DNA of 64,000 nt. It comes from an uncultured Chloroflexia bacterium (GTDB lineage: Bacteria > Chloroflexota > Limnocylindria > Limnocylindrales > CSP1-4). Below, piece after piece: positions 15,891 through 58,367 of this stretch. Where the stretch lies: positions 288,001 through 352,000 of the forward strand of contig CAVVCZ010000005.1 of assembly GCA_963746845.1 (NCBI GenBank), given 5' to 3'. The stretch's first letter is position 1; each line of letters begins with the position of its first letter. A program made the translations under genes and the position numbers. A model generated the notes under the pieces. The model saw only the letters and a list, made by a program, of their open reading frames with translations, was not told where the DNA came from and made no database searches.

Positions 15891-17012
15891 ATGTCGACCA
15901 CCCCGAGTAGCAGGCCTTCGTCCACGGCGATCGTCGGCTGGCTCGTGGTCGCAGTCATCGGGCTCGCGCTGGCCGCCCTCGTGGTCCTCAACGCCTCCGC
16001 GATCTGGAACAGCTTCTTCCCGCCCGAGGCGAAGAGCGTCCAGGGCCAGGAGATCCGCAACCTCTACGACATCGTCTTCGGCATCGCCGTCGTGATCTTC
16101 GTCGTCGTCGAGGGCCTGATCGTCTGGTCCGTGATCCGTTACCGGCGCAGGCCGGGCGACAACGAGCTCCCGCCGCAGACCCACGGCAACAACCTCGCCG
16201 AGATCACCTGGACGCTGATCCCGACCGTCATCGTCATCTTCCTGTTCATCGTCTCGTGGCAGACGCTGAACAGCGTCGAGGCGGAGTCGTCGCAGCCGAA
16301 CCTGAAGGTCCGCGCGGTGGCCGGCCAGTTCCAGTGGACGTTCGAGTACCTCCCGGCCGACGCCCAGTCCGACACGAAGGCGCTCTTCACGATCACGACG
16401 CCCCAGGGACCGGACGGCGGGCTCACCTTGCCGGCCGGCCAGACGACCCACCTCTATCTCAAGAGCCCCGACGTCATCCACGCGTTCTACGTCCCGCAGT
16501 TCCTGTTCAAGCGGGACGTCGTGCCGGGCGTCACGAACCAGTTCGATCTCGACATCCCCGCGAGCTCCGCCGGCCAGACGTTCCGTGGCCAGTGCGCCGA
16601 GCTGTGCGGGATCGGTCACGCCGGCATGCTGTTCGACGTCCATGCGGTCACGCCGGCCGAGTTCGACGCGTTCATGCAGAAGCAGATCGCGGCCGCCAAC
16701 GCGACGCCGCCGCCGGCGCCGTCCGGGGGCGGTGGACCCTCGATCCCGATCACGGCCGAGGGCATCAAGTTCGACCAGGCGACGCTCACGGCGCCGGCGG
16801 CCGGGTTCACCATCCACTTCGACAACAAGGACGCGGGCACGCCGCACGACTTCGACATCCTCGACGCGTCGGGCAAGAAGGTCTTCGACAGCCAGCCCTT
16901 CCCCGGCGTGGCCGCGAAGGACGAACCCGTTCCCCCGCTGACGGCGGGGAGCTACAAGTTCGAGTGCTCCGTGCACCCGACCCTGATGTTCGGCACGCTC
17001 ACGGTCCAGTAG
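15891..17012 (+). CDS. coxB: Cytochrome c oxidase subunit II with C-terminal cupredoxin fusion
   Basis: DVIHAF and CuA motif CAELCGIGHAGM; extra domain PHDFDI...YKFECSVHPTLM. Confidence 0.95.
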   Translation: MSTTPSSRPSSTAIVGWLVVAVIGLALAALVVLNASAIWNSFFPPEAKSVQGQEIRNLYDIVFGIAVVIFVVVEGLIVWSVIRYRRRPGDNELPPQTHGNNLAEITWTLIPTVIVIFLFIVSWQTLNSVEAESSQPNLKVRAVAGQFQWTFEYLPADAQSDTKALFTITTPQGPDGGLTLPAGQTTHLYLKSPDVIHAFYVPQFLFKRDVVPGVTNQFDLDIPASSAGQTFRGQCAELCGIGHAGMLFDVHAVTPAEFDAFMQKQIAAANATPPPAPSGGGGPSIPITAEGIKFDQATLTAPAAGFTIHFDNKDAGTPHDFDILDASGKKVFDSQPFPGVAAKDEPVPPLTAGSYKFECSVHPTLMFGTLTVQ

Positions 17013-17020
17013 GGGAGCTC

Positions 17021-18651
<1,631 letters not shown>

Positions 18652-18652
<1 letters not shown>

Positions 18653-19311
18653 TGGCCGTCGACAGCTCCGCCCTGACCCCGGCGGGACACGCCGCGGTCG
18701 AGCACAGCCCGGTAGGTGCGCTGCCGCACGACGCGCGCGGCGGGATCAGCAACCCGATCCTCGGGATGATCCTGTTCATCTGCTCGGAGGTGATGTTCTT
18801 CTCCGGGCTGTTCGCCGCGTACTTCAGCGTGCGTGCGTCGACGACGCCGTGGCCCCCGGTCGTGCCCGGCGACCCGGAGCTGACCGAGGCCTTCAACCTC
18901 CACGCCGAGCCGTGGTTCGCGCTCGTCCTCACGATCGTCCTGGTCATCAGCTCGTTCACCTGCCAGATGGCCATCTGGGCGATCCGGCGCGACGACCATT
19001 CGGGCTTCGTCCGGGGGATCGGCGTCACGCTGGTGCTCGGCATCACCTTCCTGGTCGGCCAGGTCTACGACTACTCGCAGCTGGGTTTCGGGATCTCCGA
19101 CACCCCGTTCGGGACGACGTTCTACACCCTGACCGGCTTCCACGGCGCCCACGTCTTCGGCGGCGCGGTGATGCTCTCGGTGATCCTGTATCGCGGCCTC
19201 GCAGGGCAGTTCAGCTCACGCCACTACGACGCGGTCGAGGCGGTGTCGCTGTACTGGCACTTCGTCGACGTCGTGTGGATCGTTCTGTTCGCGACGCTCT
19301 ACATCCTGTAG
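18652..19311 (+). CDS. coxC: Cytochrome c oxidase subunit III
   Basis: SEVMFF, FYTLTGFHGAHV, YWHFVDVVW. Confidence 0.96.
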
Positions 19312-19324
19312 GCAGGGAGGCGCG

Positions 19325-19519
19325 ATGCATCCGCTCCGGCATCCCCGCAACGCCGCCTTCATCGGCATCATCTTCATCGTCATCGCCTTCTTCTACTGGG
19401 CGGTGCCGTACTTCGGCGGCTGGCACGTCGACTATGCCGGGGTCACGATGCTGCTCGTCCTCGGGATCGCGATGAGCCTGATGGCCTACGTCCTCGTCGC
19501 CGGCTCCTCGAACGACTAG
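19325..19519 (+). CDS. Small 2-TM protein, likely the N-terminal half of an actinobacterial-type oxidase subunit IV (CtaF-like)
   Basis: GGGAGG RBS; FFYW...DYAGVTML resembles the CtaF EWAGTTAL segment. Confidence 0.6.
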   Translation: MHPLRHPRNAAFIGIIFIVIAFFYWAVPYFGGWHVDYAGVTMLLVLGIAMSLMAYVLVAGSSND

Positions 19520-19555
19520 CGTCCGAGAGCCCGCGAGCCCCCCGACACCTCACTG

Positions 19556-20641
19556 ATGGAACTCCTCCAGAACATCTGGGACTCGATCCTCCAGCTGCTC
19601 TCCCAGTTCATCATCCCGGACTGGGGCTCGCTGATCATCCTGCTGCCCGTCTTCATCTTCGCCCTCGTCGTCGTCTTCTTCATCTGGGTCCTGCTGATGA
19701 CCCGGCGGACCGGTCCGCGCCGGCGGCGAGGTGGCCGGATCACGCCGAGGACGCCCGCCGGCCTCCACATGCCGGGCCCGACGTATGCCCCGTTCTTTGC
19801 GGCCTTCGGGGCCTTCATGCTGTTCCTCGGGCTGGTCTTCCCGGGCCCGCTCCTGCTCCTCGGAGTGGTGGCGCTCGTCCTGGCGCTCCTGTTCTGGGGC
19901 CGCGAGGGCCTGGCCGACTACGACCATGTGGCCGGCGACCATCCGGCGCTGCCGGCGGTCGTCCACGACGAGCCGCCCCCGGGCGTCCACGTGCCCGGCC
20001 CCACGTTCCGCCCGATCCTGGCCTCGATCGGGGTGTTCCTGCTGTTCCTGGGCCTCGTGTTCCCGGGCCCGATCCTCGCGGTCGGGCTGGCCTTCCTGGT
20101 CGTGGCCCTGCTCGGCTGGCTCAACGACGCCCGCAAGGAGTACCAGCGGACCGTCCGGGCCGACACGACGGGGCACCTGGAAAATGGCCCGGATCCCGCC
20201 TGGCCGGTGGCCACGGTCTGGATCTTCGGGGCGCTTGTGCTCGTCGCGGTCGTCGTCACCGCCGGCTGGTTCCCGTCGAAGTCCGCGGTCGGTGGGGAGG
20301 CGACCGGCTCGCCCGCGCCGGGCGGCTCCGGGGCGCCGCCCGGATCCGGCGGCCCACCGGGTGCGATCACGCTCGTCGCCCAGAACATCACGTTCAACAC
20401 GACGACCCTGTCGGCGACGACCGGCAAGCCGTTCCAGGTCGTGCTCGACAACAAGGACGCGGGCACGCCACACGACTTCGACATCCTCGATGCCGGCGGG
20501 ACGAAGGTCTTCGACGGCAAGGATTTTCCCGGCCCGGCCCAGATGACGTACAACGTCCCGGCGCTCGATTCCGGGACCTACAAGTTCGAGTGCTCGATCC
20601 ATCCCGCGCTGATGAACGGGCAGCTGAACGTCGGCGGCTGA
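19556..20641 (+). CDS. Membrane protein with duplicated subunit-IV-like TM hairpins and a C-terminal cupredoxin domain
   Basis: Two HxPGPT...LFLGLVFPGP repeats; PHDFDI...YKFECSIHPALM. Confidence 0.8.
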   Translation: MELLQNIWDSILQLLSQFIIPDWGSLIILLPVFIFALVVVFFIWVLLMTRRTGPRRRRGGRITPRTPAGLHMPGPTYAPFFAAFGAFMLFLGLVFPGPLLLLGVVALVLALLFWGREGLADYDHVAGDHPALPAVVHDEPPPGVHVPGPTFRPILASIGVFLLFLGLVFPGPILAVGLAFLVVALLGWLNDARKEYQRTVRADTTGHLENGPDPAWPVATVWIFGALVLVAVVVTAGWFPSKSAVGGEATGSPAPGGSGAPPGSGGPPGAITLVAQNITFNTTTLSATTGKPFQVVLDNKDAGTPHDFDILDAGGTKVFDGKDFPGPAQMTYNVPALDSGTYKFECSIHPALMNGQLNVGG

Positions 20642-20657: not shown

Positions 20658-21224
20658 GTGACCACCGAGACCCCGGGCGCGGTGCCCTCCCGCCGGCCCA
20701 CGCGTCGCATTGCCCTCCTCGTCGGGATCGCGGCGGTCACGACCGTGGCGATCGTCGCGCTCGTCGCCGTCACCCGGCCGGGGAGCGGCGCATCGGACAC
20801 GATCGCGAAGGGCTCGCCGGCGCCGAACATCCACGGGACGACTTTGGACGGCACGACCGCGGACCTCGCATCGCTGCGCGGCCACCCGGTCGTGATCAAC
20901 TTCTGGGCGTCGTGGTGCGGGCCGTGCAAGGATGAGATGCCGCTGCTGGCCCAGAAGGCCACCGCCCACGCGGACACCGGGCTCGAGATCCTCGGCGTCC
21001 TGTCCGACGACACCGCCGACAGCGGCCGGGCATTCGAGAAGCAGTACGGCGCGACCTGGCCGAGCGTCTTCGACGGCGACAGCGCGATCAAGACCGCCTA
21101 CCGGGTGATCGGGCGGCCGCAGAGCTACTTCGTCGATCGGAACGGCGTCCTGCAGTCGATCCAGGTGGGCTACCTGACCGACGCCGACTTCGAGCGTCAG
21201 TACGCGCTGATCTCCGGCTCGTGA
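20658..21224 (+). CDS. TlpA/ResA-like thiol-disulfide oxidoreductase
   Basis: TM anchor, INFWASWCGPC. Confidence 0.92.
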   Translation: MTTETPGAVPSRRPTRRIALLVGIAAVTTVAIVALVAVTRPGSGASDTIAKGSPAPNIHGTTLDGTTADLASLRGHPVVINFWASWCGPCKDEMPLLAQKATAHADTGLEILGVLSDDTADSGRAFEKQYGATWPSVFDGDSAIKTAYRVIGRPQSYFVDRNGVLQSIQVGYLTDADFERQYALISGS

Positions 21225-48707: not shown

Positions 48708-49183
48708 TCGAGGGCGGCCGGCCGGCCGGCGTCAAGGCGGCGTCGCCGGACCGACCGCGGACGGTCCTCCAGGGTGGCCGCGCCAAGGCCTATCGACCGT
48801 TGCCGGAGCCCGATCGACGGGCGGCCTACGACGAGGCACTCGCAGCGTACGAGCGCGGCGACTTCTTCGAGGCGCACGAGCTCCTCGAGCCGGCCTGGAT
48901 GGGATCCGACGACCTCGCCGAGCGGGAGCTCCACCAGGGCCTGATCAAGCTGGCCGCGGGGTTCGTGCACGGCGTCCGGGGCAACCCGCTCGGGATCGCC
49001 AAGAACCTCCGGGGTGCCCGAGACCATCTCGCCGGCGCCGTCGGGACCGATGCGGAGGCCTGGTCCGGACTGGATCTCGAGGCGCTGATCGCCGCGATCG
49101 ACGAGCGGCTCGCCCGTCTGGCCGCCGACCCGACCGATGCCTCGATCGATCCGCCGCCGCTGCCGAGGAGGGAGACAGGATGA
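48704..49183 (+). CDS. DUF309 family protein
   Basis: [23 protein letters not shown]. Confidence 0.88.
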
Positions 49184-49569
49184 ATCCGTCCGGGGTGCCG
49201 TCGATCCAGCCCCGCGATGCCGCGATCGCGGTCGGCGTCGCCGGTGACGCCGCGGCCGCCGGCGACCCGTCGGCCCCCCTGATCGTCGACGTTCGCGAGC
49301 TCGACGAGTTCGTGGCGGACCGGATCGCCGGCGTCGCGCTGGTGCCGGTGTCCCAGCTCCTGACCCGCTTCGAGGAGCTGCCGCGTGACCGGCCGCTCCT
49401 GATGGTGTGCCGGTCCGGCAGCCGGTCCGCCGCCGCGACCCAGTTCCTCCTCCAGCGGGGCTGGACGGACGTGCGGAACATCGACGGCGGGATGCTCGCG
49501 TGGCAGCGCAACGGGCTGCCGGTGCGAACGGGTCCGCCCGGCCCGGATGAGGGTTCCCTCCCCCGCTGA
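49180..49569 (+). CDS. Rhodanese-like domain protein
   Basis: VDVRE, CRSGSRS, GGMLAW. Confidence 0.9.
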   Translation: MNPSGVPSIQPRDAAIAVGVAGDAAAAGDPSAPLIVDVRELDEFVADRIAGVALVPVSQLLTRFEELPRDRPLLMVCRSGSRSAAATQFLLQRGWTDVRNIDGGMLAWQRNGLPVRTGPPGPDEGSLPR

Positions 49570-49585
49570 CTGCCCGGAGCGGAGA

Positions 49586-51052
49586 TCAGGCCCGGGCCTT
49601 GAGCGCCTTCTCGCGCCGGCGCCGGTCGCGCCACTCCCGGATCTGCGTCTTGTGGGCGAATGCCCAGCCGATCGCGATGAAGATCGCGAAGTTGATGATC
49701 CCGACCGTGTTCGCCGCGAGGTAGCCGAGCTGCTGGCCGATCTCGCCGTTGATCGTCAGCGCCGGCACGGTCGCTCCGAACAGGCCCAGCTGGAAGAACG
49801 GCGCCGCGGGCGCGATGTTCGCCCGGATGCTCCCCGTCTGCACCCCGGCGGTGGTCGTGCCGCCGACGATGACCGCGTTCGGGCCGAGGATCAGCGGCGC
49901 GCCGCCGGCGTTGCCCTCGGGCGGCAGGTCGCTGACCACGAGGCGCTTCCACTCCGGGATGTCGCCGCCCGTCGTGGGGACGCCCCAGTACAGCGTGGAC
50001 TGCGGCGTCTTGCCGTCGCTGCCGCCGACGGCGTACAGGTTTCCGTTCGCCGCGAAGCCGTTGATGTTCGTGCGCGGCGCCGGGAGGTTGCCGGGGCCGG
50101 ACCGGACCCCGAACTGGACGAGGGTCGTCGCGCTCGTGCCCGTCCCGAACTCACCACGCTGCACGGTCCCGGTCGGCGTGCCGTCGGCCATCGTGCCGCC
50201 GTAGACCCAGACGTAGCTGCCCACGAGCGCGGCCGAGGCGTCGGTCACGGGCGTGTAGAGCTTGGCCGGCTGGACAGCCCACTTGCCGGGGGCGCCGGTC
50301 TTGTCGAACGTGGCCTTCCAGACCGTGTTGGTCGGTCCCGTCCCGTTCGTCCCGCCGACCAGGAACAGCCCGTCCGTCCCCGACAGGAGGACGGCACCGG
50401 CCCGCGGCTCCGGCAGGCCCAGGTCGAGCTTGGCGTCCTGGGCCGTCTGCCAGGTGCCGAGCTCACCGGTCGTCGCGTTCGGCGTGAGGACGAACACCGT
50501 GTTGGTCGGCTTGCCGTCCGCCCCAAACCCGCCGACGACGTAGATCTTGCCGCCCGAGTAGACGATGCCCGCATCCGACCGCGCGGCCGGCAGCTTCGGG
50601 CCGTCTGCGCTCCACTTGTCGAAGTTCCCGGCGCCCGAGACCTTCGACACGAACGTCGTGTCGACCGCGGTCTTCCCGTCGGACCCGCCGATGTACAGCA
50701 GGGTCGTGCCGGACTGGACGACCGCGCCGTCCGTCCGCGGCGCGGGCAGGGCGATCTCGGGCGGCGACGGAGCCCACGGCACGACGGCCCCGACCGGCGC
50801 CGGGCACGGCAGCGACTGGTTCCCCTCGGGGCAGAAGTTGACCGGGCTCCACGCGAGGATGCCGAGGTCGATCGTCTTGTTGACGGTGAAGTAGTAGGCG
50901 CGGTCGGGGATGTACCCGAGCATGAAGATCAGGAGGATGAACCAGGCGAACGCCTTGAGCGAGGCCCAGATCCAGCCGCTCGCGTCGAGCAGGCCGAACA
51001 GGGCCCGTCCGCGCGTCTGCGTCGTCCCCGGGTTCAGGGCCTGCTGCGCCAT
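49586..51052 (-). CDS. Membrane-anchored Kelch-repeat (beta-propeller) protein
   Basis: Six GG-type repeats (LLYIGG, IYVVGG, LFLVGG, VWVYGG, LYAVGG, VIVGG) between N- and C-terminal TM helices. Confidence 0.85.
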   Translation of the reverse strand: MAQQALNPGTTQTRGRALFGLLDASGWIWASLKAFAWFILLIFMLGYIPDRAYYFTVNKTIDLGILAWSPVNFCPEGNQSLPCPAPVGAVVPWAPSPPEIALPAPRTDGAVVQSGTTLLYIGGSDGKTAVDTTFVSKVSGAGNFDKWSADGPKLPAARSDAGIVYSGGKIYVVGGFGADGKPTNTVFVLTPNATTGELGTWQTAQDAKLDLGLPEPRAGAVLLSGTDGLFLVGGTNGTGPTNTVWKATFDKTGAPGKWAVQPAKLYTPVTDASAALVGSYVWVYGGTMADGTPTGTVQRGEFGTGTSATTLVQFGVRSGPGNLPAPRTNINGFAANGNLYAVGGSDGKTPQSTLYWGVPTTGGDIPEWKRLVVSDLPPEGNAGGAPLILGPNAVIVGGTTTAGVQTGSIRANIAPAAPFFQLGLFGATVPALTINGEIGQQLGYLAANTVGIINFAIFIAIGWAFAHKTQIREWRDRRRREKALKARA

Positions 51053-51123
51053 CGTCCTCCCATCCATCCGGGCGCCCCTGCGCCCGGCTCGATTGCCGGC
51101 TCCCCGGCCGTGCTGCGTGACTG

Positions 51124-52278
51124 CTACTTGACCTCGAGGGTCCCGAGCATCGTCGTCGGATGTACCTGGCAGAGGTACGTGTAGTTGCCGCTCTTCAGGG
51201 CCGGGACTGCGTACGACACCGTCTTGGGCCCGAGGAAGAACGCGGTGTCACCCATCGGGACGACGGACTTGCCGGCGTCCTCGATCACGATGTTGTGCTG
51301 GACCGTCGGGTCCTGGTTGTCGAACTTCAGCGTGAATGCCGTGTCCGCCTTGGCCTCGAGGGTCGTGGGCTGGAACCCGGCCGTCGCCGCGCCGCTCGGC
51401 GCCGTCACGGTCAGGACCGGCGCGTTCGGGTCGATCGAGGCCGCCGGAGCGGCGGACGATCCGCTGCCACCGGTCAGCGCGTCGAGGTAGCAGTCCGGGA
51501 ACGGCGTAGCGCCCGGTGCCGGCTTGTAGTTCGGGTCGCGCCATCCGGTGAACGTCTCGACCTTGCCGGTGGCCGGATCGATGATCGGCTCGTTCGTGGA
51601 CGGGTCGCGCTTCTCGTACGTGCCCTCGTTCGTGGCCCGCAGGAACGCGATCAGCTCGTCGATCTGGCGGTAGTTGAGCGGGCCGGGCGGGTTGCCCTTG
51701 TCCGACCAGACTGGCATCTGCGAGTTCGCGTTGCCGCACACATAACGGCCGCCGACCTGGAGGACGTTCCGGAGATAGCCCTCGTTGAGGTGAGCGTAGA
51801 GCTTCTCCTGGGAGTTCAGCTGCGGCCCGATGTAGCCCGCCGTGGCGGCGTCCGGCTCGTTGGGGCCGAGGCCGTTCGGGCCGTGGCAGCGAGCGCAGTT
51901 CGCCTCGAACAGGTTGTAGCCGCGCTGCACGTCGACCACCTGCTGGGCGGCCTCCTCGACCGCGAGGCGCGGCTTGGACAACCCGAGCGGCGAGCCGATC
52001 TCGTAGAACCAGTAGCCGACGATGAACAGACTGACGAAGATCACCGTCAGGAACCCGACCCAGCGAGCCGCGCCGGACTGGCGGACGATCCCGGCGGAGC
52101 GAGCCGGGGTCAGCCCGGCGTTCGACTTGATCGCGGGCGGGGCGGTGAACCGGTCCGCGGTCAGCTGGCTCTGCGGGATCGTCGCCGGCAGACGCTCCTC
52201 GGCGCCGCCGGCATCCGCGGCCGGCTCCGGCGTGCCCTCGGGCACCGGGGCCGGCGTCGACGGGGTCTGGTCGGTCAT
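51124..52278 (-). CDS. Membrane-anchored cytochrome c fused to a cupredoxin domain
   Basis: TM, CARCH heme motif, QMPVW; QHNIV...YLCQVHPTTM. Confidence 0.9.
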   Translation of the reverse strand: MTDQTPSTPAPVPEGTPEPAADAGGAEERLPATIPQSQLTADRFTAPPAIKSNAGLTPARSAGIVRQSGAARWVGFLTVIFVSLFIVGYWFYEIGSPLGLSKPRLAVEEAAQQVVDVQRGYNLFEANCARCHGPNGLGPNEPDAATAGYIGPQLNSQEKLYAHLNEGYLRNVLQVGGRYVCGNANSQMPVWSDKGNPPGPLNYRQIDELIAFLRATNEGTYEKRDPSTNEPIIDPATGKVETFTGWRDPNYKPAPGATPFPDCYLDALTGGSGSSAAPAASIDPNAPVLTVTAPSGAATAGFQPTTLEAKADTAFTLKFDNQDPTVQHNIVIEDAGKSVVPMGDTAFFLGPKTVSYAVPALKSGNYTYLCQVHPTTMLGTLEVK

Positions 52279-52952
52279 CAGATGCAGCCGGTCGGGGTAA
52301 GGGGCGGGATGATGCCCGGCTGGCCGACGGCGACCGGCAGCGGGCCGAGGGTGATCTTGCCCGTGTCGAGGGTCAGCACGCCGCCGCTGTCGACGGTCGC
52401 CGAGAACCGGTCCATGCTCCGCGGCGCCGGGCCGTACTGGGCCCCGGCCGCCTTGATCCCGAGCCGGTCATAGCGCGACCCGTGGCAGGGGCACTCCAGC
52501 CAGAAGTTCTTCAGGCACGGGTTCGGCCGGCAGCCGAGGTGCGGGCAGCGCTGGTACAGCCCGCGGACGTTCAACGGCGTGCCATCGCCGGTCGTGTCCT
52601 CGCCGGGCGTGTAGCTCTGCTGGCTCGTGTTGATCAGGACGACATACGCCCGGGCCTCCGGGAAGTACGCCGGGAAGCCCTCGTCGATCGGCAGGTTCGA
52701 GTTCGCGAGCTTGACGTCCTCGTAGGTCCCGATCTTGACCTTGCTCCCGAACCCGCCGCTCAGGTTCGGCCAGATGAACCCGATCGTGCCCGCGGTGACC
52801 TCGAGCAGCCACAGCGTGATCGCGCCGCCGATCGAGTAGCGGAGCAGCTGGCGGCGCGAGATCCCCTGGACCTGGCTTCGCCGGAGCGATTTGATCGACT
52901 GCGGAACGAGAGCGCGCGGCTGGTCCGCGGGCTCGACGTGGTAGTTGCTCAT
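52278..52952 (-). CDS. Rieske [2Fe-2S] subunit
   Basis: Tat-like SRRQLL + TM; CPHLGC and CPCHGSRY. Confidence 0.95.
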   Translation of the reverse strand: MSNYHVEPADQPRALVPQSIKSLRRSQVQGISRRQLLRYSIGGAITLWLLEVTAGTIGFIWPNLSGGFGSKVKIGTYEDVKLANSNLPIDEGFPAYFPEARAYVVLINTSQQSYTPGEDTTGDGTPLNVRGLYQRCPHLGCRPNPCLKNFWLECPCHGSRYDRLGIKAAGAQYGPAPRSMDRFSATVDSGGVLTLDTGKITLGPLPVAVGQPGIIPPLTPTGCI

Positions 52953-52994
52953 GCGCGCGTGCTCGGGGTGGTCATGCAGGTCATGGTCCCGTGA

Positions 52995-53612
52995 TCAGAG
53001 GGAGAAGTGGAGGCCCGGCGAGGAGTTCTCGAAGAAGGGCAGGAAGGGGATGACGAAGCTGTAGCCGGGGCCGCGGAAGAAGATGCCGACGAAGGTCAGC
53101 GTCAGCCCGAGGCCGCAGAACAGCGTGAACAGGACGACCGCGGTCTTCCGCTCGGACGGCCGGGTCGTCGTCAGGCTGCCACGATCCACGTACGGGATCA
53201 GGGCCGCCCCGACGAGCACGAGCAGCGGGGTCAGGACCCCGGCGACCGTCGGGTGGAAGTAGGCGAGCAGCTCCTGGAGCCCGAGGAAGTACCACGGCGC
53301 CTTGGCGACGGCCGGGGTGACGTTCGGGTTCGCCAGCTCCTCCAGCGGCGCGTTGATGAACAGGCCCATCAGGAGGAGGAAGACGCTCATCATCCCGGCC
53401 GCGAGGAACTCGATCGAGAGCAGGTGCGGCCAGGTCATGACCGTGTCGTCGGGCTCCTTCTGGACCCGGACGACCGCATCCTGCTTGACGAGCGCGAGCA
53501 GCCGGTACGGCCGCGCCGACATCGGCACGCGCTGCTTGTCGATCTCCGTTCGACGAGCCGGGTCGACCGGCAGGACCACGCGCTTGTCCGGCGGGGACTT
53601 CGTGTCGGTCAT
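52995..53612 (-). CDS. Cytochrome b C-terminal subunit (subunit IV / PetD-like)
   Basis: TWPHL, APLEELANP, KAPWYFLGLQELL (PEWY variant), PYVDR. Confidence 0.9.
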   Translation of the reverse strand: MTDTKSPPDKRVVLPVDPARRTEIDKQRVPMSARPYRLLALVKQDAVVRVQKEPDDTVMTWPHLLSIEFLAAGMMSVFLLLMGLFINAPLEELANPNVTPAVAKAPWYFLGLQELLAYFHPTVAGVLTPLLVLVGAALIPYVDRGSLTTTRPSERKTAVVLFTLFCGLGLTLTFVGIFFRGPGYSFVIPFLPFFENSSPGLHFSL

Positions 53613-53640
53613 CGGCTCACACCCTCCGGGCCGATAGGGC

Positions 53641-53728
53641 AGCCGAGCGCAAGGCGGAGCCGAGCACGGGAGCGAGCGCACTCATGTGCGTGAGCGAGCG
53701 CGCGGAGGCGACAACGCGGCGAACGGCT
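53641..53728. repeat. Structured interspersed repeat, copy B
   Basis: Shares blocks with 31477-31554; lies inside the Rieske/cytb operon. Confidence 0.75.
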
Positions 53729-53729
53729 G

Positions 53730-54458
53730 TCATAGCGGCCCGGAGATCCCGCCGTCCTTGCGGATGCGCCAAAAGTGGACCGCAAGGAAGATCGCCGCCG
53801 CGAGCGGGAAGACCATGATGTGGAGCACGTAGAACCGCAGGAGCGTGTTCTGCCCGACCTCCAGGCCGCCCAGCAGCATCCGGTTGAACGGGGTGTTGAT
53901 CAGTGGCGCGTAGCCACCCATGTTCGTTCCGATCGTGATCGCCCAGAACGCGATCTGGTCCCACGGAAGCAGGTAGCCGCTGAAGCTGAGCATGATCGTC
54001 AGGAAGAGCAGGACGACCCCGACGACCCAGTTGAACTCGCGTGGCGGCTTGTATGCCCCGTGATAGAAGACCCGCATCATGTGGAGGAAGACGAAGAACA
54101 CCATCAGGTGAGCGGCCCATCGATGGATGTTCCTGGTCAATAGCCCGAACGTGACCTGGCTCTGGATGTCCAGGATGTTCGTGTATGCGAGCGTCGCCGA
54201 CGGAACATAGAAGAACATGAGATACACGCCGGTGATCGTCAGGACGAGGAACAGGAAGAAGGACAGGCCGCCGAGGCAGAACGTGTAGGCGAACTTCACG
54301 GCGTGCTGGCGGACGCGGACCGGGTGGATGTGCAGGAAGACGTTGTTCATCACCGCGTACGCCCGCGACCGTTCGTCGTTGGGGTACGGCTGACGGAAGA
54401 GCGAGCGCCAGACCGGGCTCCGGCGGATGGTCTGGTCCACCCGCTCCAGGAAACTCAC
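53730..54458 (-). CDS. Cytochrome b6-like N-terminal subunit
   Basis: FCLGG (heme ci Cys), RNIHRW...LHMMR, GYLLPWDQ, H-x14-H, C-terminal GISGPL; GTGA overlap with the upstream gene. Confidence 0.95.
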   Translation of the reverse strand: MSFLERVDQTIRRSPVWRSLFRQPYPNDERSRAYAVMNNVFLHIHPVRVRQHAVKFAYTFCLGGLSFFLFLVLTITGVYLMFFYVPSATLAYTNILDIQSQVTFGLLTRNIHRWAAHLMVFFVFLHMMRVFYHGAYKPPREFNWVVGVVLLFLTIMLSFSGYLLPWDQIAFWAITIGTNMGGYAPLINTPFNRMLLGGLEVGQNTLLRFYVLHIMVFPLAAAIFLAVHFWRIRKDGGISGPL

Positions 54459-56323
54459 CTGGCTCCTCCTGCGACGCCGGGCGTGCCGGCCAGCTGCGCG
54501 TCGCGGTACGACTCCTTGTAGAGCCGCCCGTCGGTCGAGATCTCCTGCAGCTCGAACCGCTCCATCGTAATGGCGTCGAACGGGCAACGCTTGACACACA
54601 AGGCGCAGCGGATGCAGCGCTCCTCGTCGAGGATCATCGCGGCCCCGTTCTCCCAGCCGTACGACTCCTCGATCTCCGGGAGCAGGCCCTCGGTCTTCAG
54701 CTGGTTGACGTCGACCATGTGGATGACGCCCTCGGGGCAGACGTCGGCGCAGGCGCCGCACAGGACGCACCGGAACGGGTCGAACCAGATGTTGTAGTTG
54801 CACATCAGGCAGCGGGTCGACTCCGCCACCGCGGCCGTCGCGTCGTAGCCGTATTCGACCGGGGTGTTGAAGTTGATCTCCGGGTCGGTCGAGGGCATCC
54901 GCGCGGCGAGCGGCGCCATCGGGATGTGCTGGCGCGGCAGGACGTCGTAGAGCTCCGGCATGTCGTGCCGCCAGGAGCTCGTGATCTTCACGTTCGGGCT
55001 GACCGTGACGTCGGTCCGGCCGGCGAGGTACCGGTCGATCGCGTAGGCGCACTTCTTCCCGTGGCCGGCTGCCTCGATGAGGGTCGTCGGGCCGGTCACG
55101 AAGTCGCCGCAGGCGAAGACGCCGCGGACGTTCGTCGCATACGTCGCCGGGTCGACCTTCACCCGGCCGCGGTTGATCTCGAAGGTCGACTCGACTGGCA
55201 GGAAGGTCAGGTCGGCGGCCTGCGACACGGCCGGGATGACGACGTCCGCGGGGATCGTGAACTCGCTGCCCTCGATCGGGACCGGCGACCGGCGACCCGA
55301 GGCGTCCGGCTCGCCGAGCCGGTTGCGGATGAACCGGACCGCCGTCACGTGGCCGTCCTTGCCGAGGACCTCGATCGGGCTCGCGAGGAACTCCATCCGG
55401 ACGCCCTCGCGCTCGGTCTCGCCGAGCTCCTCCTCGTCGACGACGAGCTCGGACCGCGTCCGGCGGTAGACGATCGACACGTGGTCGGCGCCGTGGCGGA
55501 GGCTCGTCCGCGAGCAGTCCATCGCGGTGTAGCCGCCACCGATCACGACGACGTCCTTGCCGACGTACAGCTCCTGGCCGAGGTTCGCCTTCTTCATGAA
55601 GTCGACGCCGTAGTCGACCCCGTCGAGTTCGCCGCCCGGGATGTCGAGCGCGACCGGGTCCATCGCGCCGGCCGTGAGGGCGACCGCGTCGTAGTCCCGC
55701 TGGAGCTCCTCGAACGTGACGTCGACGCCGACCGTCGTGTTGAACCGGAACTCGACGCCGAGGCGCTCGACGAGCCGGACATCCATCTCGATCGCCTCGC
55801 GCGGGAGGCGGAACGCGGGGACGCCGATCAGCATCGTCCCGCCGCCGTACGGCAGGCTGTCGAAGACCGTGACCCCGACACCCTTCATCGCGAGCTCGCG
55901 GGCGACCGCCAGCCCGGCCGGGCCGGCACCCACCACCGCGACCCGCTCCGGACGGGCGGTGATCCGGGGCATGACGTCGGGGATGCCCGAGGCCTCGTGC
56001 CACTCGACGAGGAACCGCTTCATCGCCCGGATCGCCAGCGGCCGGTCGATGTCGCCGCGGCGGCAGGCCCGCTCGCACGGGGCGGAGCAGACGTACGAGC
56101 ACATCGCGGCGACCGGGTTCGGCTCGCGCGACAGGATGTAGCCCTCCTCGAACCGGCCCTCGGCCGCGAGGTTCAGGTAGCCGCGGCAGTTCGTCCCGAC
56201 CGGGCACGCCTCCTGGCACTCGATGTTGCACTGGAGCCAGGAAGCGTCGACGGGCTGAACGAGGAATTCCTGGAAGGGGTCGATGGCCAAGTCGAGGACG
56301 TGCCTTTCGAGTGTGGTCCACAT
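54455..56323 (-). CDS. GltD/NfnB-like FAD-NAD(P)H oxidoreductase with Fe-S clusters and a C-terminal 2x[4Fe-4S] ferredoxin
   Basis: CQEACP, MCSYVCSAPCERAC, GAGPAG, GGGYTA, YRR, GD; CVLCGACADVCP and CIRCALCVKRCP (start may instead be TTG at 56290). Confidence 0.92.
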   Translation of the reverse strand: MWTTLERHVLDLAIDPFQEFLVQPVDASWLQCNIECQEACPVGTNCRGYLNLAAEGRFEEGYILSREPNPVAAMCSYVCSAPCERACRRGDIDRPLAIRAMKRFLVEWHEASGIPDVMPRITARPERVAVVGAGPAGLAVARELAMKGVGVTVFDSLPYGGGTMLIGVPAFRLPREAIEMDVRLVERLGVEFRFNTTVGVDVTFEELQRDYDAVALTAGAMDPVALDIPGGELDGVDYGVDFMKKANLGQELYVGKDVVVIGGGYTAMDCSRTSLRHGADHVSIVYRRTRSELVVDEEELGETEREGVRMEFLASPIEVLGKDGHVTAVRFIRNRLGEPDASGRRSPVPIEGSEFTIPADVVIPAVSQAADLTFLPVESTFEINRGRVKVDPATYATNVRGVFACGDFVTGPTTLIEAAGHGKKCAYAIDRYLAGRTDVTVSPNVKITSSWRHDMPELYDVLPRQHIPMAPLAARMPSTDPEINFNTPVEYGYDATAAVAESTRCLMCNYNIWFDPFRCVLCGACADVCPEGVIHMVDVNQLKTEGLLPEIEESYGWENGAAMILDEERCIRCALCVKRCPFDAITMERFELQEISTDGRLYKESYRDAQLAGTPGVAGGAR

Positions 56324-56567
56324 CCCGGGGAGTCGTGCGTCCGGCAAGCCTGCAAGGCACCGCGGCCGGCGGTCCGAATCTACCATCGCGGGCTCGGCCT
56401 TCGCAAAGACGGGCGGTGCCGTCCGAGCGTGGCTGGACGGGCCGTCCGACGCACCCCGAGAGGCCTCCCCGCGTGCTCCGCGAGGTTGACCGCCGACGCG
56501 CACGCAGCTACGCTCGCGAGGGGGATCATTCGTGCGGCCGACGGGTGGCCGGGGAGGACAGCGGATC

Positions 56568-58367
56568 TTGACGGCGGGCGAGCTCACCTTCCTGGCCCTC
56601 GGCCTGCTCCTCGGGGTGGCCACTGGCGCCGCCCTCATCGAGATCCTCCGGTCCCGGCCGCGGGCACCGCGCGAGGTCCGCGTCACGGTCGCACGGAACT
56701 CGATTCACGCACGATTCCCGGCCACGCTGTCCGATCCGACCGCGTCGTTCGAGATGACCGGCCCGGCCCCGGGCGGGCCCGGCGATCGCCGCTGGCACGA
56801 CGAGCGGCCGGCGGAGCTGGCCGTCCTCCCCGGGCGGCGGATCGACGACGCGGGACCCCCGATGCGGTCCGCCACTGGAACACCTGTTCCATCCCGGCCG
56901 GCGCCGATCTGGCTATCGCCACTGGCGGCGGGATCGACGACGATGGTGCCGGTCCCGATGTCGATCGAGCCGGACCCGCTCACGGCGGCCCTCCGATCGA
57001 CCGCAGCCGCCGTGGCGACGGCCGCGATGGCCGGGCCGGGTAGCCGGGAGGCAACGACGCATCCGATGGCGACTGGCAACGCGGCTCCGTCCGGCGGCTC
57101 GGGCGCGGGCGGACACGGCGGCGGCTCCGATGGGCCGCCGGCGGATGCCCCGCGCGCCACGCCACCCGACGCCGGTCCGTGCGCGGACGAACGGCGCGTC
57201 GCCGACGAGCGCTGCGCGGTCGCATCCCGGGCACGGGCGGGCGCCGACCAGGCAGCCGAGGCACTGCGCGCCGCGCAGCGGACGCACGACGAGCACATGG
57301 CCGCCGCGGCGGCGGGCGCCCTGGCGGCGGATCCCCGTTCGGTCCGGACCGCGAAGGAGGCCGCGCAGGATCGATTCCGCGACGCGCGGGCGGCCGCGAA
57401 CACGCGCGACGACGTCGAGAGCGCCGCCCGCGCCTGGCTGGCCGAGATCAACCAGATCAACAACGAGACCCGCGAGGCCGCGGCGCGCGCCGAGCGCAGC
57501 CGCGCGGCAGCCACCGCGCTGGGGATGACGCTGGAGCGACTGGCGGTCGAGGCCGACGCGGCCCGGATTTCCGCGGCACGAGCCGACGAGGCCTGCATCG
57601 CCGCCCGTGAGACGGTCGCCGCGTGCGACGAGGCGCGGACGCTGGAGGCCGCCGCGGCCGCGAGGGCCGCCGCACAGGCGCCGGCAGCGCCACCTGCTCC
57701 GGCCGCCCCGGTCGCCGCGGCCGCCCCGATCGCCGACAAGCCGGGTCCGGCCCCGGCCGCCACGCCCGAGCCCGAGGAGGAGTTCGCCCTCAGCGGGTCG
57801 ATGGGCTCGCGGGCCGGCCAGGACGCGCTGATCCTGCGGATCCTGCGCGGCGACCGCGGCGCGATGCAGCACGCCGTCGCACGACTGGCGACCCCCGGCA
57901 GCGATGAGGCTCGTCACTGGCAGGCGCTCCTCGGCGGGTTCGCGGACGCATTGATCGCCCGGGCGATCGAGGCGTCGGCGTTCGACTTCCCGGACGACCA
58001 CTACTTCTGGGGCCCGTTCAACCACACGCAGAACCGCGACATCGCGGCCGGGCTGTCGTCCCTCGGCTTCCGGTTCGACGGGTTCGGCGGGTGGGTCGAC
58101 GACCGGATCCCGAGCCAGCGCGACCTCGCCCTCGCCGTCGGTTATGCGGGCCTCGACCCGATGCGGATCCGGCGCTGGCCGAACGAGACGGAGACACGCG
58201 AGCTGCTGTCGGGCGTCCGGGTCGCCGCCGACGAGTACGTGGCGGGCGCCGCCGGTGGGCTGACCCTCGGCGAGCTGGTCACGCTCCTCGGGCGCCGGGC
58301 CGACGGCCTGACCGAGCTCTGGAACAACTGGGGCACGGTCCGGCCGATCCTCCTCGAGGGCGGCTGA
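56568..58367 (+). CDS. Hypothetical membrane-anchored coiled-coil protein
   Basis: GGAGG RBS + TTG; N-terminal TM, Ala-rich coiled coil, globular C-terminal domain. Confidence 0.7.
   Translation: MTAGELTFLALGLLLGVATGAALIEILRSRPRAPREVRVTVARNSIHARFPATLSDPTASFEMTGPAPGGPGDRRWHDERPAELAVLPGRRIDDAGPPMRSATGTPVPSRPAPIWLSPLAAGSTTMVPVPMSIEPDPLTAALRSTAAAVATAAMAGPGSREATTHPMATGNAAPSGGSGAGGHGGGSDGPPADAPRATPPDAGPCADERRVADERCAVASRARAGADQAAEALRAAQRTHDEHMAAAAAGALAADPRSVRTAKEAAQDRFRDARAAANTRDDVESAARAWLAEINQINNETREAAARAERSRAAATALGMTLERLAVEADAARISAARADEACIAARETVAACDEARTLEAAAAARAAAQAPAAPPAPAAPVAAAAPIADKPGPAPAATPEPEEEFALSGSMGSRAGQDALILRILRGDRGAMQHAVARLATPGSDEARHWQALLGGFADALIARAIEASAFDFPDDHYFWGPFNHTQNRDIAAGLSSLGFRFDGFGGWVDDRIPSQRDLALAVGYAGLDPMRIRRWPNETETRELLSGVRVAADEYVAGAAGGLTLGELVTLLGRRADGLTELWNNWGTVRPILLEGG

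Follow-up and report, generated by a model that had tools for sequence, protein, structure and literature searches.

Few energy converters are as well understood as the Rieske/cytochrome b complexes, whose low-potential chain is generally assumed to serve the Q cycle only. A built-in NADP(H) flavoprotein would add a second outlet or inlet to that chain. In Kuenenia, Rieske/cytochrome b complexes with a large oxidoreductase subunit are reported to be highly expressed (de Almeida 2016, as cited in PMC5600118), and according to the modelling account in PMC12954380, AlphaFold3 models, together with Rieske potentials higher than +300 mV, fit NAD(P)H production best in anammox bacteria. An NAD(P)H-making bc-type complex has so far been argued for anammox from models and redox potentials alone. 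A second parallel is the b6f complex, with which FNR co-purifies (Zhang 2001, as cited in PMC5600118). The flavoprotein-linked Rieske/cytochrome b design is known already from anammox and is seen in many phyla, and the operon described here is a further case. It lies in a window (the whole stretch of DNA analysed, 64,000 nucleotides) from a soil or freshwater bacterium of the class Limnocylindria, phylum Chloroflexota. Limnocylindria are abundant soil and freshwater aerobes.

A six-gene operon with a b6-type cytochrome

Between positions 49586 and 56323 of the window, six tightly packed genes on the minus strand encode a Rieske/cytochrome b6 complex and a flavoprotein. The first-pass annotation had proposed this anatomy, and all six genes were recovered in place with matching Pfam domains and motifs, at E-values and with a conservation in relatives that are far beyond chance. 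The gene for a GltD/NfnB-like iron-sulfur flavoprotein (54455–56323, 622 aa) is flanked upstream by a divergent ORF without a family and downstream by the gene for a short cytochrome b (53730–54458, 242 aa). The two are translationally coupled through the overlap that had been noted before: the TGA stop of the flavoprotein shares bases with the GTG with which cytochrome b begins at 54458 (GTGA, in the context aGGTGAg). Subunit IV (52995–53612), the Rieske [2Fe-2S] protein (52278–52952, 224 aa) and a cytochrome c-cupredoxin fusion (51124–52278, 384 aa) follow, the ATG of the last overlapping the Rieske stop (TGATG), and a Kelch gene completes the cluster.

Cytochrome b (PF00033, E = 3e-45) is of the b6 type. 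It carries the CxGG cysteine of heme cn in helix A (Cys61, within FCLGG), four heme-b histidines (His112/His126 and His213/His228, with 14 residues between the second pair in helix D) and a C-terminus reading GISGPL, and subunit IV is encoded by a separate gene. Its best solved matches are b6 chains, and spinach b6 (6rqf) aligns from residue 59 onwards (E = 3.5e-51); the preceding 58-residue N-terminal region carries His43, which is invariant in all 29 aligned sequences. For subunit IV (PF00032, E = 2.4e-07) the more probable start is the ATG at 53612, giving 205 aa, with the GTG at 53681 as the alternative. The PEWY motif is absent from subunit IV, which has APWY instead (within KAPWYF), a variant of the quinol-site motif; all 19 aligned sequences, those of Brocadia and a Nitrospirota MAG among them, share A105-P106-W107-Y108. 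The Rieske protein (PF00355, E = 2.5e-06; CPHLGC ... CPCHGSRY) has both Ser and Tyr in box II, as does Kuste4569. Since this Ser/Tyr motif is also found in Chloroflexota lineages without the flavoprotein, it is no specific adaptation.

The membrane-anchored cytochrome c-cupredoxin (Cupredoxin_1, E = 4.4e-10; Cytochrom_C, E = 9.4e-09) is likely to be the high-potential acceptor of the complex. It is monoheme, with a single CxxCH (CARCH at 128), and His328, Cys370, His373 and Met377 of its cupredoxin domain show the spacing of a type-1 copper site. COX2, COX1 and COX3 lie in the same window, in agreement with the A-type oxidase of the first-pass annotation. The cytochrome b of the operon is the only one in the genome, which also contains complex I membrane genes. 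The complex I gene cluster itself includes an NfnA-like NADPH module.

The locus resembles the cyanobacterial and chloroplast b6f complex in its split cytochrome b with heme cn, its best solved match, its probable blue copper acceptor and the presence, proposed here, of an N-side NADP(H) flavoprotein. However, FNR has an unrelated fold, lacks Fe-S clusters and is encoded apart from the complex, and here cytochrome b is about 26 residues longer at its N-terminus, APWY stands in place of PEWY and the photosynthetic context is absent. Geobacter ExtOPQ (Cbc6) offers another likeness: against NCBIfam ExtP, cytochrome b reaches 289.4 bits, short of the curated cut-off (290), and the ExtQ score is 54.5 against a cut-off of 150. 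The Geobacter cluster as described in PMC5877670, by contrast, contains multiheme cytochromes and no flavoprotein.

The flavoprotein and its anammox counterpart

The flavoprotein comprises an N-terminal two-cluster domain with eight cysteines (32, 36, 40, 46, 75, 79, 83 and 87; Fer4_20, E = 1.1e-16), FAD and NAD(P)H sites (GAGPAG and GGGYTA ... VYRR; Pyr_redox_2, E = 1e-28), a linker with conserved YDVLPRQ and RCLMC sequences and, at the C-terminus, a 2x[4Fe-4S] ferredoxin domain (Fer4, E = 5.2e-14), whose two CxxCxxCxxxCP motifs begin at residues 519 and 570. Its best solved relatives are NfnA (9n5u, E = 2.2e-110) and 9bov/9bp5 (E = 5.8e-108), followed by 4ylf (E = 5.8e-88), 5jca (E = 1.8e-76) and 2vdc (E = 2e-65); FwdF (5t5i) matches residues 512–591. 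Alignment with NfnA 9n5u reveals a common NADPH-type motif, GGGYTAMD...VYRR, whose YRR presumably binds the 2'-phosphate, and the enzyme may be specific for NADPH. NfnAB/NfnABC and GltD share the N-terminal two-cluster, FAD and NADPH domains, whereas the protein described here has its own C-terminal ferredoxin domain and membrane cytochromes as neighbours, and no partner gene (NfnA-small, NuoE/F-like NfnB/C or GltB) lies beside it. All its NCBIfam equivalog scores fall below cut-off, including that for NF009410 (427 bits, cut-off 516).

The anammox type (Kuenenia Kuste4569–4574 and Kustd1480–1485) was compared via Brocadia sapporoensis locus L095, whose flavoprotein is 41% identical over residues 19–594 (E = 7e-133). 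The anammox parallel drawn by the first-pass annotation holds: in both, Rieske protein, short cytochrome b with the CxGG cysteine and APWY subunit IV are clustered around a homologous FAD/NAD(P) multi-Fe-S protein of the same architecture and the same well-supported clade. The closest solved structures are 9bp5 and 5t5i for both flavoproteins, as given for anammox in PMC12954380. The systems differ in several respects. Here the host is aerobic and has an A-type oxidase, and its acceptor is a monoheme cytochrome c-cupredoxin, whereas anammox bacteria use multiheme or HAO-like proteins; neither multiheme cytochrome c nor HAO-like P-side subunits occur in the cluster. Gene order is flavoprotein-cytochrome b-subunit IV-Rieske here and Rieske-cytochrome b-flavoprotein ... 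subunit IV in Brocadia. The N-terminal domain has eight cysteines here, whereas Brocadia has five at these positions, and the anammox domain was modelled with a [3Fe-4S] cluster in the account in PMC12954380, which also reports Kuenenia subunit IV with five helices, to be set against the 205 aa found here.

Conservation, co-loss and phylogeny

Among close relatives, the flavoprotein adjoins cytochrome b in 35 of 41 and the orthologues lie apart in none. The GTGA overlap recurs with the same geometry in 19 genomes of the same genus, and in a second family the two genes abut in every genome (16/16). We also drew 201 Chloroflexota genomes, counting the flavoprotein at E ≤ 1e-120; both genes were present in 17 Limnocylindria genomes of this draw and adjacent in all 17. 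The conservation beside cytochrome b on which the first-pass annotation depended is thus upheld. A cytochrome b match was found in 41/41 Chloroflexota genomes with the flavoprotein, compared with 85/160 of the others. In five relatives (83–95% complete), the flavoprotein orthologue, the orthologous cytochrome b and COX1 are jointly absent; within Limnocylindria, the flavoprotein strictly tracks aerobic respiration and disappears along with COX1.

Outside this class, the flavoprotein gene is absent from the orthologous cytochrome b operon of other Chloroflexota, a copy being located elsewhere or missing. Homologues with 40–46% identity occur alone in six other families, distant from the cytochrome b operon and in unconserved surroundings, and three genomes with a 60–64% identical cytochrome b contain no member of the flavoprotein family at E ≤ 1e-20, a threshold at which the positive control matched. 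Since orthologous operons are present in flavoprotein-free genomes, the flavoprotein is an add-on, and the complex works without it.

Across genomes, 80 loci with flavoprotein relatives were compared, and 44 of them have a same-strand cytochrome b gene no more than 0.8 kb away, under nine phylum labels and in two different gene orders. All linked flavoproteins form one clade (58 rows, SH-aLRT 100), within which those of the window and the Brocadia Rieske/cytochrome b locus share a subclade (SH-aLRT 99), so the phylogeny against anammox bears out the affinity suggested at first; the cytochrome b tree recovers broadly the same two groups. The operons of clade A, which occur in Acidobacteriota and other phyla, share the flavoprotein architecture, the adjacency of Rieske, cytochrome b and subunit IV, and membership of this one clade. 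Clade A differs in its gene order (flavoprotein-Rieske-cytochrome b-subunit IV), in a Rieske box II that ends in Phe and in a cytochrome b that mostly lacks the heme-cn cysteine (YLG, compared with CLGG here). The nucleotide site of clade A ends in L-E rather than YRR and bears a long insert, a sequence difference that suggests specificity for NADH or another nucleotide. Because the linked operon occurs in Acidobacteriota, a phylum that has cultured species, the NAD(P)H question could be approached in organisms far more tractable than anammox bacteria.

Possible roles of the flavoprotein

We tentatively favour, with somewhat less than even confidence, a model in which the six genes encode the sole quinol:cytochrome c/cupredoxin oxidoreductase together with a bound flavoprotein that wires the low-potential chain to NADP(H) and makes NADPH. 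The b6-type complex would feed the A-type oxidase, and the flavoprotein would attach to it peripherally, as a subunit facing the cytoplasm (N side), where four [4Fe-4S] clusters and FAD would connect heme bn and heme cn to NADP(H). Quinol oxidation would release two electrons, of which one would run downhill through the Rieske protein and the cytochrome c-cupredoxin to oxygen; because the first goes downhill, the second could cross the b hemes and exit to NADP+ rather than reduce quinone at the N-side site. NADPH would thereby be made from quinol in parallel with the ordinary Q cycle, in the direction proposed for anammox. The Ser/Tyr box II shared with Kuste4569 and the complex I genes of this genome speak for that direction. 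Against NADP+ reduction, membrane potential opposes the exit of electrons on the N side, and the genome encodes PntB and therefore has other means of making NADPH. As to the quinone, MqnA was not found and no MenB scored above cut-off.

The same bound subunit might instead run in reverse, from NADPH via FAD and the four [4Fe-4S] clusters to heme bn/cn and quinone, so that the complex doubles as an NADPH:quinone reductase or NADPH primes the N-side site. We regard this direction as rather doubtful, although the linkage evidence serves it equally and electron transfer from NADPH is downhill with every known quinone. GltD-type modules usually accept hydride from NADPH and send single electrons outward, which favours reverse flow, as do its resemblance to ferredoxin/FNR feeding b6f in cyclic electron flow, with FNR co-purifying, and the retention both of the heme-cn cysteine here and of the flavoprotein, at 82% identity, in streamlined genomes of ~1.1 Mb. 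The cysteine is, however, absent from many flavoprotein-linked complexes of other phyla, and the partnership is therefore in general independent of heme cn. An NAD(P)H-to-quinone route would also waste energy, being non-pumping and bypassing energy conservation in an organism that has complex I genes, as do 12 of 13 streamlined relatives; reverse flow in anammox was judged unlikely on the same ground in the argument made in PMC12954380.

It is unlikely that the flavoprotein stands outside the complex, as a soluble NADPH-dependent iron-sulfur oxidoreductase (for ferredoxin, for example) that is merely co-transcribed in this class. Its sequence contains no hydrophobic segment, none of the 11 longer representatives examined is fused to cytochrome b, and stand-alone homologues occur in Lentisphaerota, Kiritimatiellota and one betaproteobacterial MAG as well as in the other Chloroflexota classes. 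Binding is nevertheless suggested by the overlap of stop and start codons, by linkage under nine phylum labels in two gene orders, by the invariable presence of cytochrome b in Chloroflexota genomes with the flavoprotein and broadly congruent trees, and by the oxidoreductase subunit reported for the Kuenenia complexes (PMC5600118). A protective or regulatory bound subunit that drains or senses an over-reduced b-heme chain with little flux, as a valve against superoxide at the quinol site, is improbable: flavoprotein-free lineages, the alternative NADPH source in PntB and the tie to aerobic respiration would suit it, but a protein of 622 residues and five cofactors that persists at 82% identity in genomes of 1.1 Mb is costly for such a role, and no regulatory domain was found in it with Pfam.

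If the NADPH-making reading is right, the sole 'complex III' of aerobic Limnocylindria may be a bifurcating quinol:cupredoxin/NADP+ oxidoreductase, with aerobic respiration driving membrane NADPH formation via the quinol-site split, a generalisation that we consider speculative and on balance doubtful. Together with the NfnA-like module, it would imply a respiratory chain built round NADP(H) adaptors on complex I and complex III.

The cluster ends with a gene (49586–51067, 493 aa) for a Kelch beta-propeller membrane protein (Kelch_1, E = 5.5e-19) with hydrophobic stretches near both ends. At 9 of 16 Limnocylindria loci examined, and also at L017, a Kelch homologue is encoded after the cytochrome c; none was found at the five f3-type loci L036–L040.

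The flavoprotein operon and its transcription context

A real and well-conserved feature occupies positions 49586–56323 of the window, whose G+C content is 72%: six genes fill this interval, all on the minus strand. The first gene encodes the flavoprotein (54455–56323, 622 aa), which has a Fer4_20 domain and two 4Fe-4S motifs in addition to a pyridine-nucleotide oxidoreductase fold, and which carries eight N-terminal cysteines, GAGPAG, GGGYTA...VYRR and an RCLMC pair, with CxxCxxCxxxCP at residues 519 and 570. Its TGA stop codon overlaps the GTG start codon of a short cytochrome b (aGGTGAg; 53730–54458, 242 aa), characterised by FCLGG with Cys61, by His112/126 and His213/228, and by a C-terminal GISGPL. 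The best solved matches of this protein are b6 chains (6rqf, E 3.5e-51), which align from residue 59 only, so its N-terminal region is approximately 26 residues longer than that of b6. Next come the genes for subunit IV, with the motif KAPWYF, and for a Rieske protein with CPHLGC...CPCHGSRY. The Rieske stop codon overlaps the ATG of the fifth gene, whose product is a cytochrome c fused to a cupredoxin domain and anchored in the membrane, and a Kelch protein gene closes the series. The first-pass annotation had described this operon from the DNA alone, and every item was borne out, including coordinates, domains, motifs and the GTGA overlap.

A promoter and terminator scan of 49000–57500 returned no promoter-like site and three terminator-like sites, which did not rise above shuffles. 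Small shares of the stretch (0.09–0.20) were found in 24 expression runs. In four soil RNA-library runs, two of which appear to be duplicate entries of a single data set, contigs at ≥90% likeness cover 28–29 of 30 bins, though contigs cannot show a transcript. The flavoprotein/cytochrome b junction (54373–54547) is bridged by one 176-base contig with 13 differences, which as a contig does not count as evidence of co-transcription. Divergent from the operon lies a 611-aa alanine-rich ORF (56532–58367, plus strand) with no Pfam or NCBIfam match; the DNA being high in G+C, this ORF may be no real gene.

Distribution of the flavoprotein and cytochrome b

According to the first-pass annotation, a flavoprotein not conserved next to cytochrome b in relatives would refute the proposed coupling. 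We searched 41 genomes, comprising the host genome, 24 further members of its genus and 16 genomes of ~1.1 Mb from a second family. Orthologue-level flavoprotein matches (79–100% identity) are present in 39 of them, and in 35 of the 41 the cytochrome b match starts where the flavoprotein match ends; the remaining six have pieces of the two genes at contig ends or missing, and in none do the orthologues lie apart. A second search covered 201 evenly drawn Chloroflexota genomes; in all 17 Limnocylindria genomes among them that have both genes, the two are neighbours. In family f3, adjacency was checked on two loci, whose flavoprotein shows 54% identity along the entire protein. Four genomes of the same family (93–95% complete) and G012 (83% complete) are without a flavoprotein orthologue; these five have no COX1 and, for cytochrome b, no match beyond a weak, non-orthologous one, and this joint absence argues that the module goes with aerobic respiration. 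Unpublished genomes enter the tallies (G010 in the 41-genome set; G078, G184 and G212 in the 201-genome draw), with no claim resting on them alone.

Outside Limnocylindria, many Chloroflexota families encode cytochrome b orthologues (56–65% identity) with subunit IV next and a Rieske gene beside, and in none of 11 such loci does a flavoprotein gene lie within ~8 kb of cytochrome b. In the 201-genome draw, 24 genomes from other classes carry a 42–49% identical flavoprotein of the same length and architecture (E ≤ 1e-120), adjacent to cytochrome b in none of the 24. These solo homologues are ORFs of 605–612 aa in seven of eight loci (760 aa in one, with a far-upstream start codon), surrounded in the seven by ORFs of varying size and strand; the eighth has a TGA inside the flavoprotein match and no such ORF listed. 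Three genomes (90–96% complete) with a 60–64% identical cytochrome b lack any family member at E ≤ 1e-20, in a search whose positive control scored 5e-202. Cytochrome b is present in 41 of 41 flavoprotein-bearing genomes versus 85 of 160 without the flavoprotein, which is meant as a pattern rather than a statistic, relatives not being independent. Since the orthologous complex exists without it, the flavoprotein is most readily understood as an optional addition to a functioning Q-cycle enzyme. A further variation is seen at L024 (G066:C33, family f15), where the orthologous cytochrome b has YGLGG in place of FCLGG and so has apparently lost the heme-cn cysteine; the same genome retains a solo flavoprotein homologue.

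The neighbourhood survey across phyla proposed in the first-pass annotation used one genome per species and a six-row alignment (A2) as query; a same-strand cytochrome b lies within 0.8 kb in 44 of the 80 loci obtained. Linked loci come from Limnocylindria (16), Acidobacteriota (20) and further Chloroflexota (two, L065 of the Ardenticatenales and L077), with single loci in Victivallales, Planctomycetales, Brocadia sapporoensis, Nitrospirae, Zixiibacteriota, Eisenbacteria and Abyssobacteria, and one in a MAG labelled Bifidobacteriaceae. The linkage thus occurs under nine phylum labels and in two gene orders. Among the 36 non-linked loci, two break off ≤0.5 kb from the gene, three are solo representatives of the clade that holds the linked proteins, and the other 31 differ in architecture, most being longer fusion proteins. 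Of the 150 best representatives, 11 homologues have long extra regions, and by Pfam none of these is a fusion to cytochrome b. Four representatives (P0151, P0176, P0207, P0211) bear N-terminal extensions of ~210–250 residues with no Pfam family at E ≤ 1e-5.

In the flavoprotein tree (88 rows; L035 and L041, both frameshifted, the partial L077 and L100 omitted), all 45 linked proteins, 12 solo proteins and one truncated protein form one clade (SH-aLRT 100). The comparison with anammox bacteria, likewise proposed earlier, places the Brocadia flavoprotein with the solo Chloroflexota proteins and the 18 Limnocylindria rows in a subclade of this clade with SH-aLRT 99. The cytochrome b tree (58 rows, L035 omitted) shows broadly the same two groups. 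Both trees come from fast IQ-TREE runs (LG+G4, no bootstraps), in which several long branches are flagged.

The respiratory chain of the host

Near-identical proteins and loci carry names that assign the host to Chloroflexota, class Limnocylindria. The host genome (3.56 Mb, 12 contigs, 92% complete) has one cytochrome b gene and one COX1. The latter lies in the window, inside an ORF at 16256–18652, beside COX2 with an extra C-terminal cupredoxin domain (15891–17012) and COX3 (18403–19311), an arrangement that identifies the oxidase as A-type, in agreement with the first-pass annotation. A 361-aa protein with a cupredoxin domain (19556–20641) follows, and after this plus-strand oxidase cluster (15891–20641) comes a thioredoxin-fold AhpC/TSA protein (20658–21224). 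The presence of cupredoxin domains in the cytochrome b complex as well as in the oxidase points to a relay of copper proteins joining the two. Complex I membrane genes and PntB are also encoded; no NrfD-family match, as sought for alternative complex III, was found in this genome, and for the quinone pathway neither MqnA nor a MenB above cut-off appeared in this 92% complete assembly. Judged by this inventory, the operon encodes the host's sole recognisable quinol:cytochrome c-type oxidoreductase.

Outside the window, the complex I cluster of the same genome (G000:C1, ~245.5–248.3 kb; L114:7522–10299, minus strand) encodes a 925-aa protein flanked by NuoF on one side and NuoJ/K/L on the other, NuoH lying upstream. 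This protein has an N-terminal 2Fe-2S domain like that of NuoG, an NADPH flavoprotein module of GltD/NfnB-like type and a pair of 4Fe-4S motifs, and its best solved match is of NfnA type (9bov/9bp5, E 1.6e-161). Paralogue-level matches of this kind (36–38% identity) occur in most of the 40 relatives, in G025, a 1.1-Mb genome, ~2 kb from a NuoL-type gene. In this lineage, complex I and the Rieske/cytochrome b complex are thus both encoded together with an NADP(H)-type module.

Candidate roles of the flavoprotein

Rieske/cytochrome b complexes with an oxidoreductase subunit are reported as highly expressed in Kuenenia, and the trees of Dibrova et al. 2017 are described as showing such proximity 'in many other cases'; its main text does not name Chloroflexi or Acidobacteria (PMC5600118). 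A 2025 study gives anammox Rieske potentials of +303 and +335 mV, presents AlphaFold3 models in which the cytochrome b dimer interface holds an additional heme b, and favours NAD(P)H production by bifurcation (PMC12954380). Our literature search found no paper on this arrangement in Limnocylindria, Acidobacteria or aerobes. The kind is already noted in print, with a putative function; the operon described here is a new member of it, an aerobic one with a cupredoxin-type acceptor and full cysteine sets.

The start/stop overlap, the linkage under many phylum labels in both gene orders, co-loss, co-occurrence, the broadly congruent trees and the anammox precedent together argue that the flavoprotein is probably a cytoplasmic-side partner of the complex. 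Our tentatively favoured reading as a whole adds to this partnership that quinol oxidation would drive NADP+ reduction through the flavoprotein, with a normal Q cycle running alongside. Its main rival, input from NADPH into quinone, appears unlikely. That the flavoprotein is an unattached soluble enzyme we regard as doubtful, and a protective role is improbable. A complex prediction (alignments of cytochrome b, subunit IV residues 1–180 and flavoprotein residues 22–598) scored 0.28 against a mark of 0.32 and weighs neither way on binding.

In the window's subclade, including Brocadia, the second nucleotide site closes with VYRR; in the acidobacterial clade a long insert precedes an L-E ending. 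By the usual rule, these endings suggest NADPH for the former group and NADH or something else for the latter. Limnocylindria flavoproteins have eight N-terminal cysteines versus five in Brocadia. Limnocylindria, Brocadia and the Nitrospirota MAG all have the heme-cn cysteine, which most acidobacterial linked operons lack.

Two candidate adaptations were rejected. Cytochrome b His43/His45 had been considered as a flavoprotein-specific ligand of the extra heme b modelled for Kuenenia, but His43 does not vary across all 29 sequences compared, operons of flavoprotein-less genomes among them, and is therefore not specific. The Rieske Ser/Tyr motif fails as an adaptation to the flavoprotein, since every Chloroflexota locus has it regardless of flavoprotein status. 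In the acidobacterial clade of linked operons (L042–L069, Acidobacteriota and other phyla), cytochrome b without the heme-cn cysteine has YLG or GLG, not CLGG, and in about ten of these loci cytochrome b and subunit IV share one open frame.
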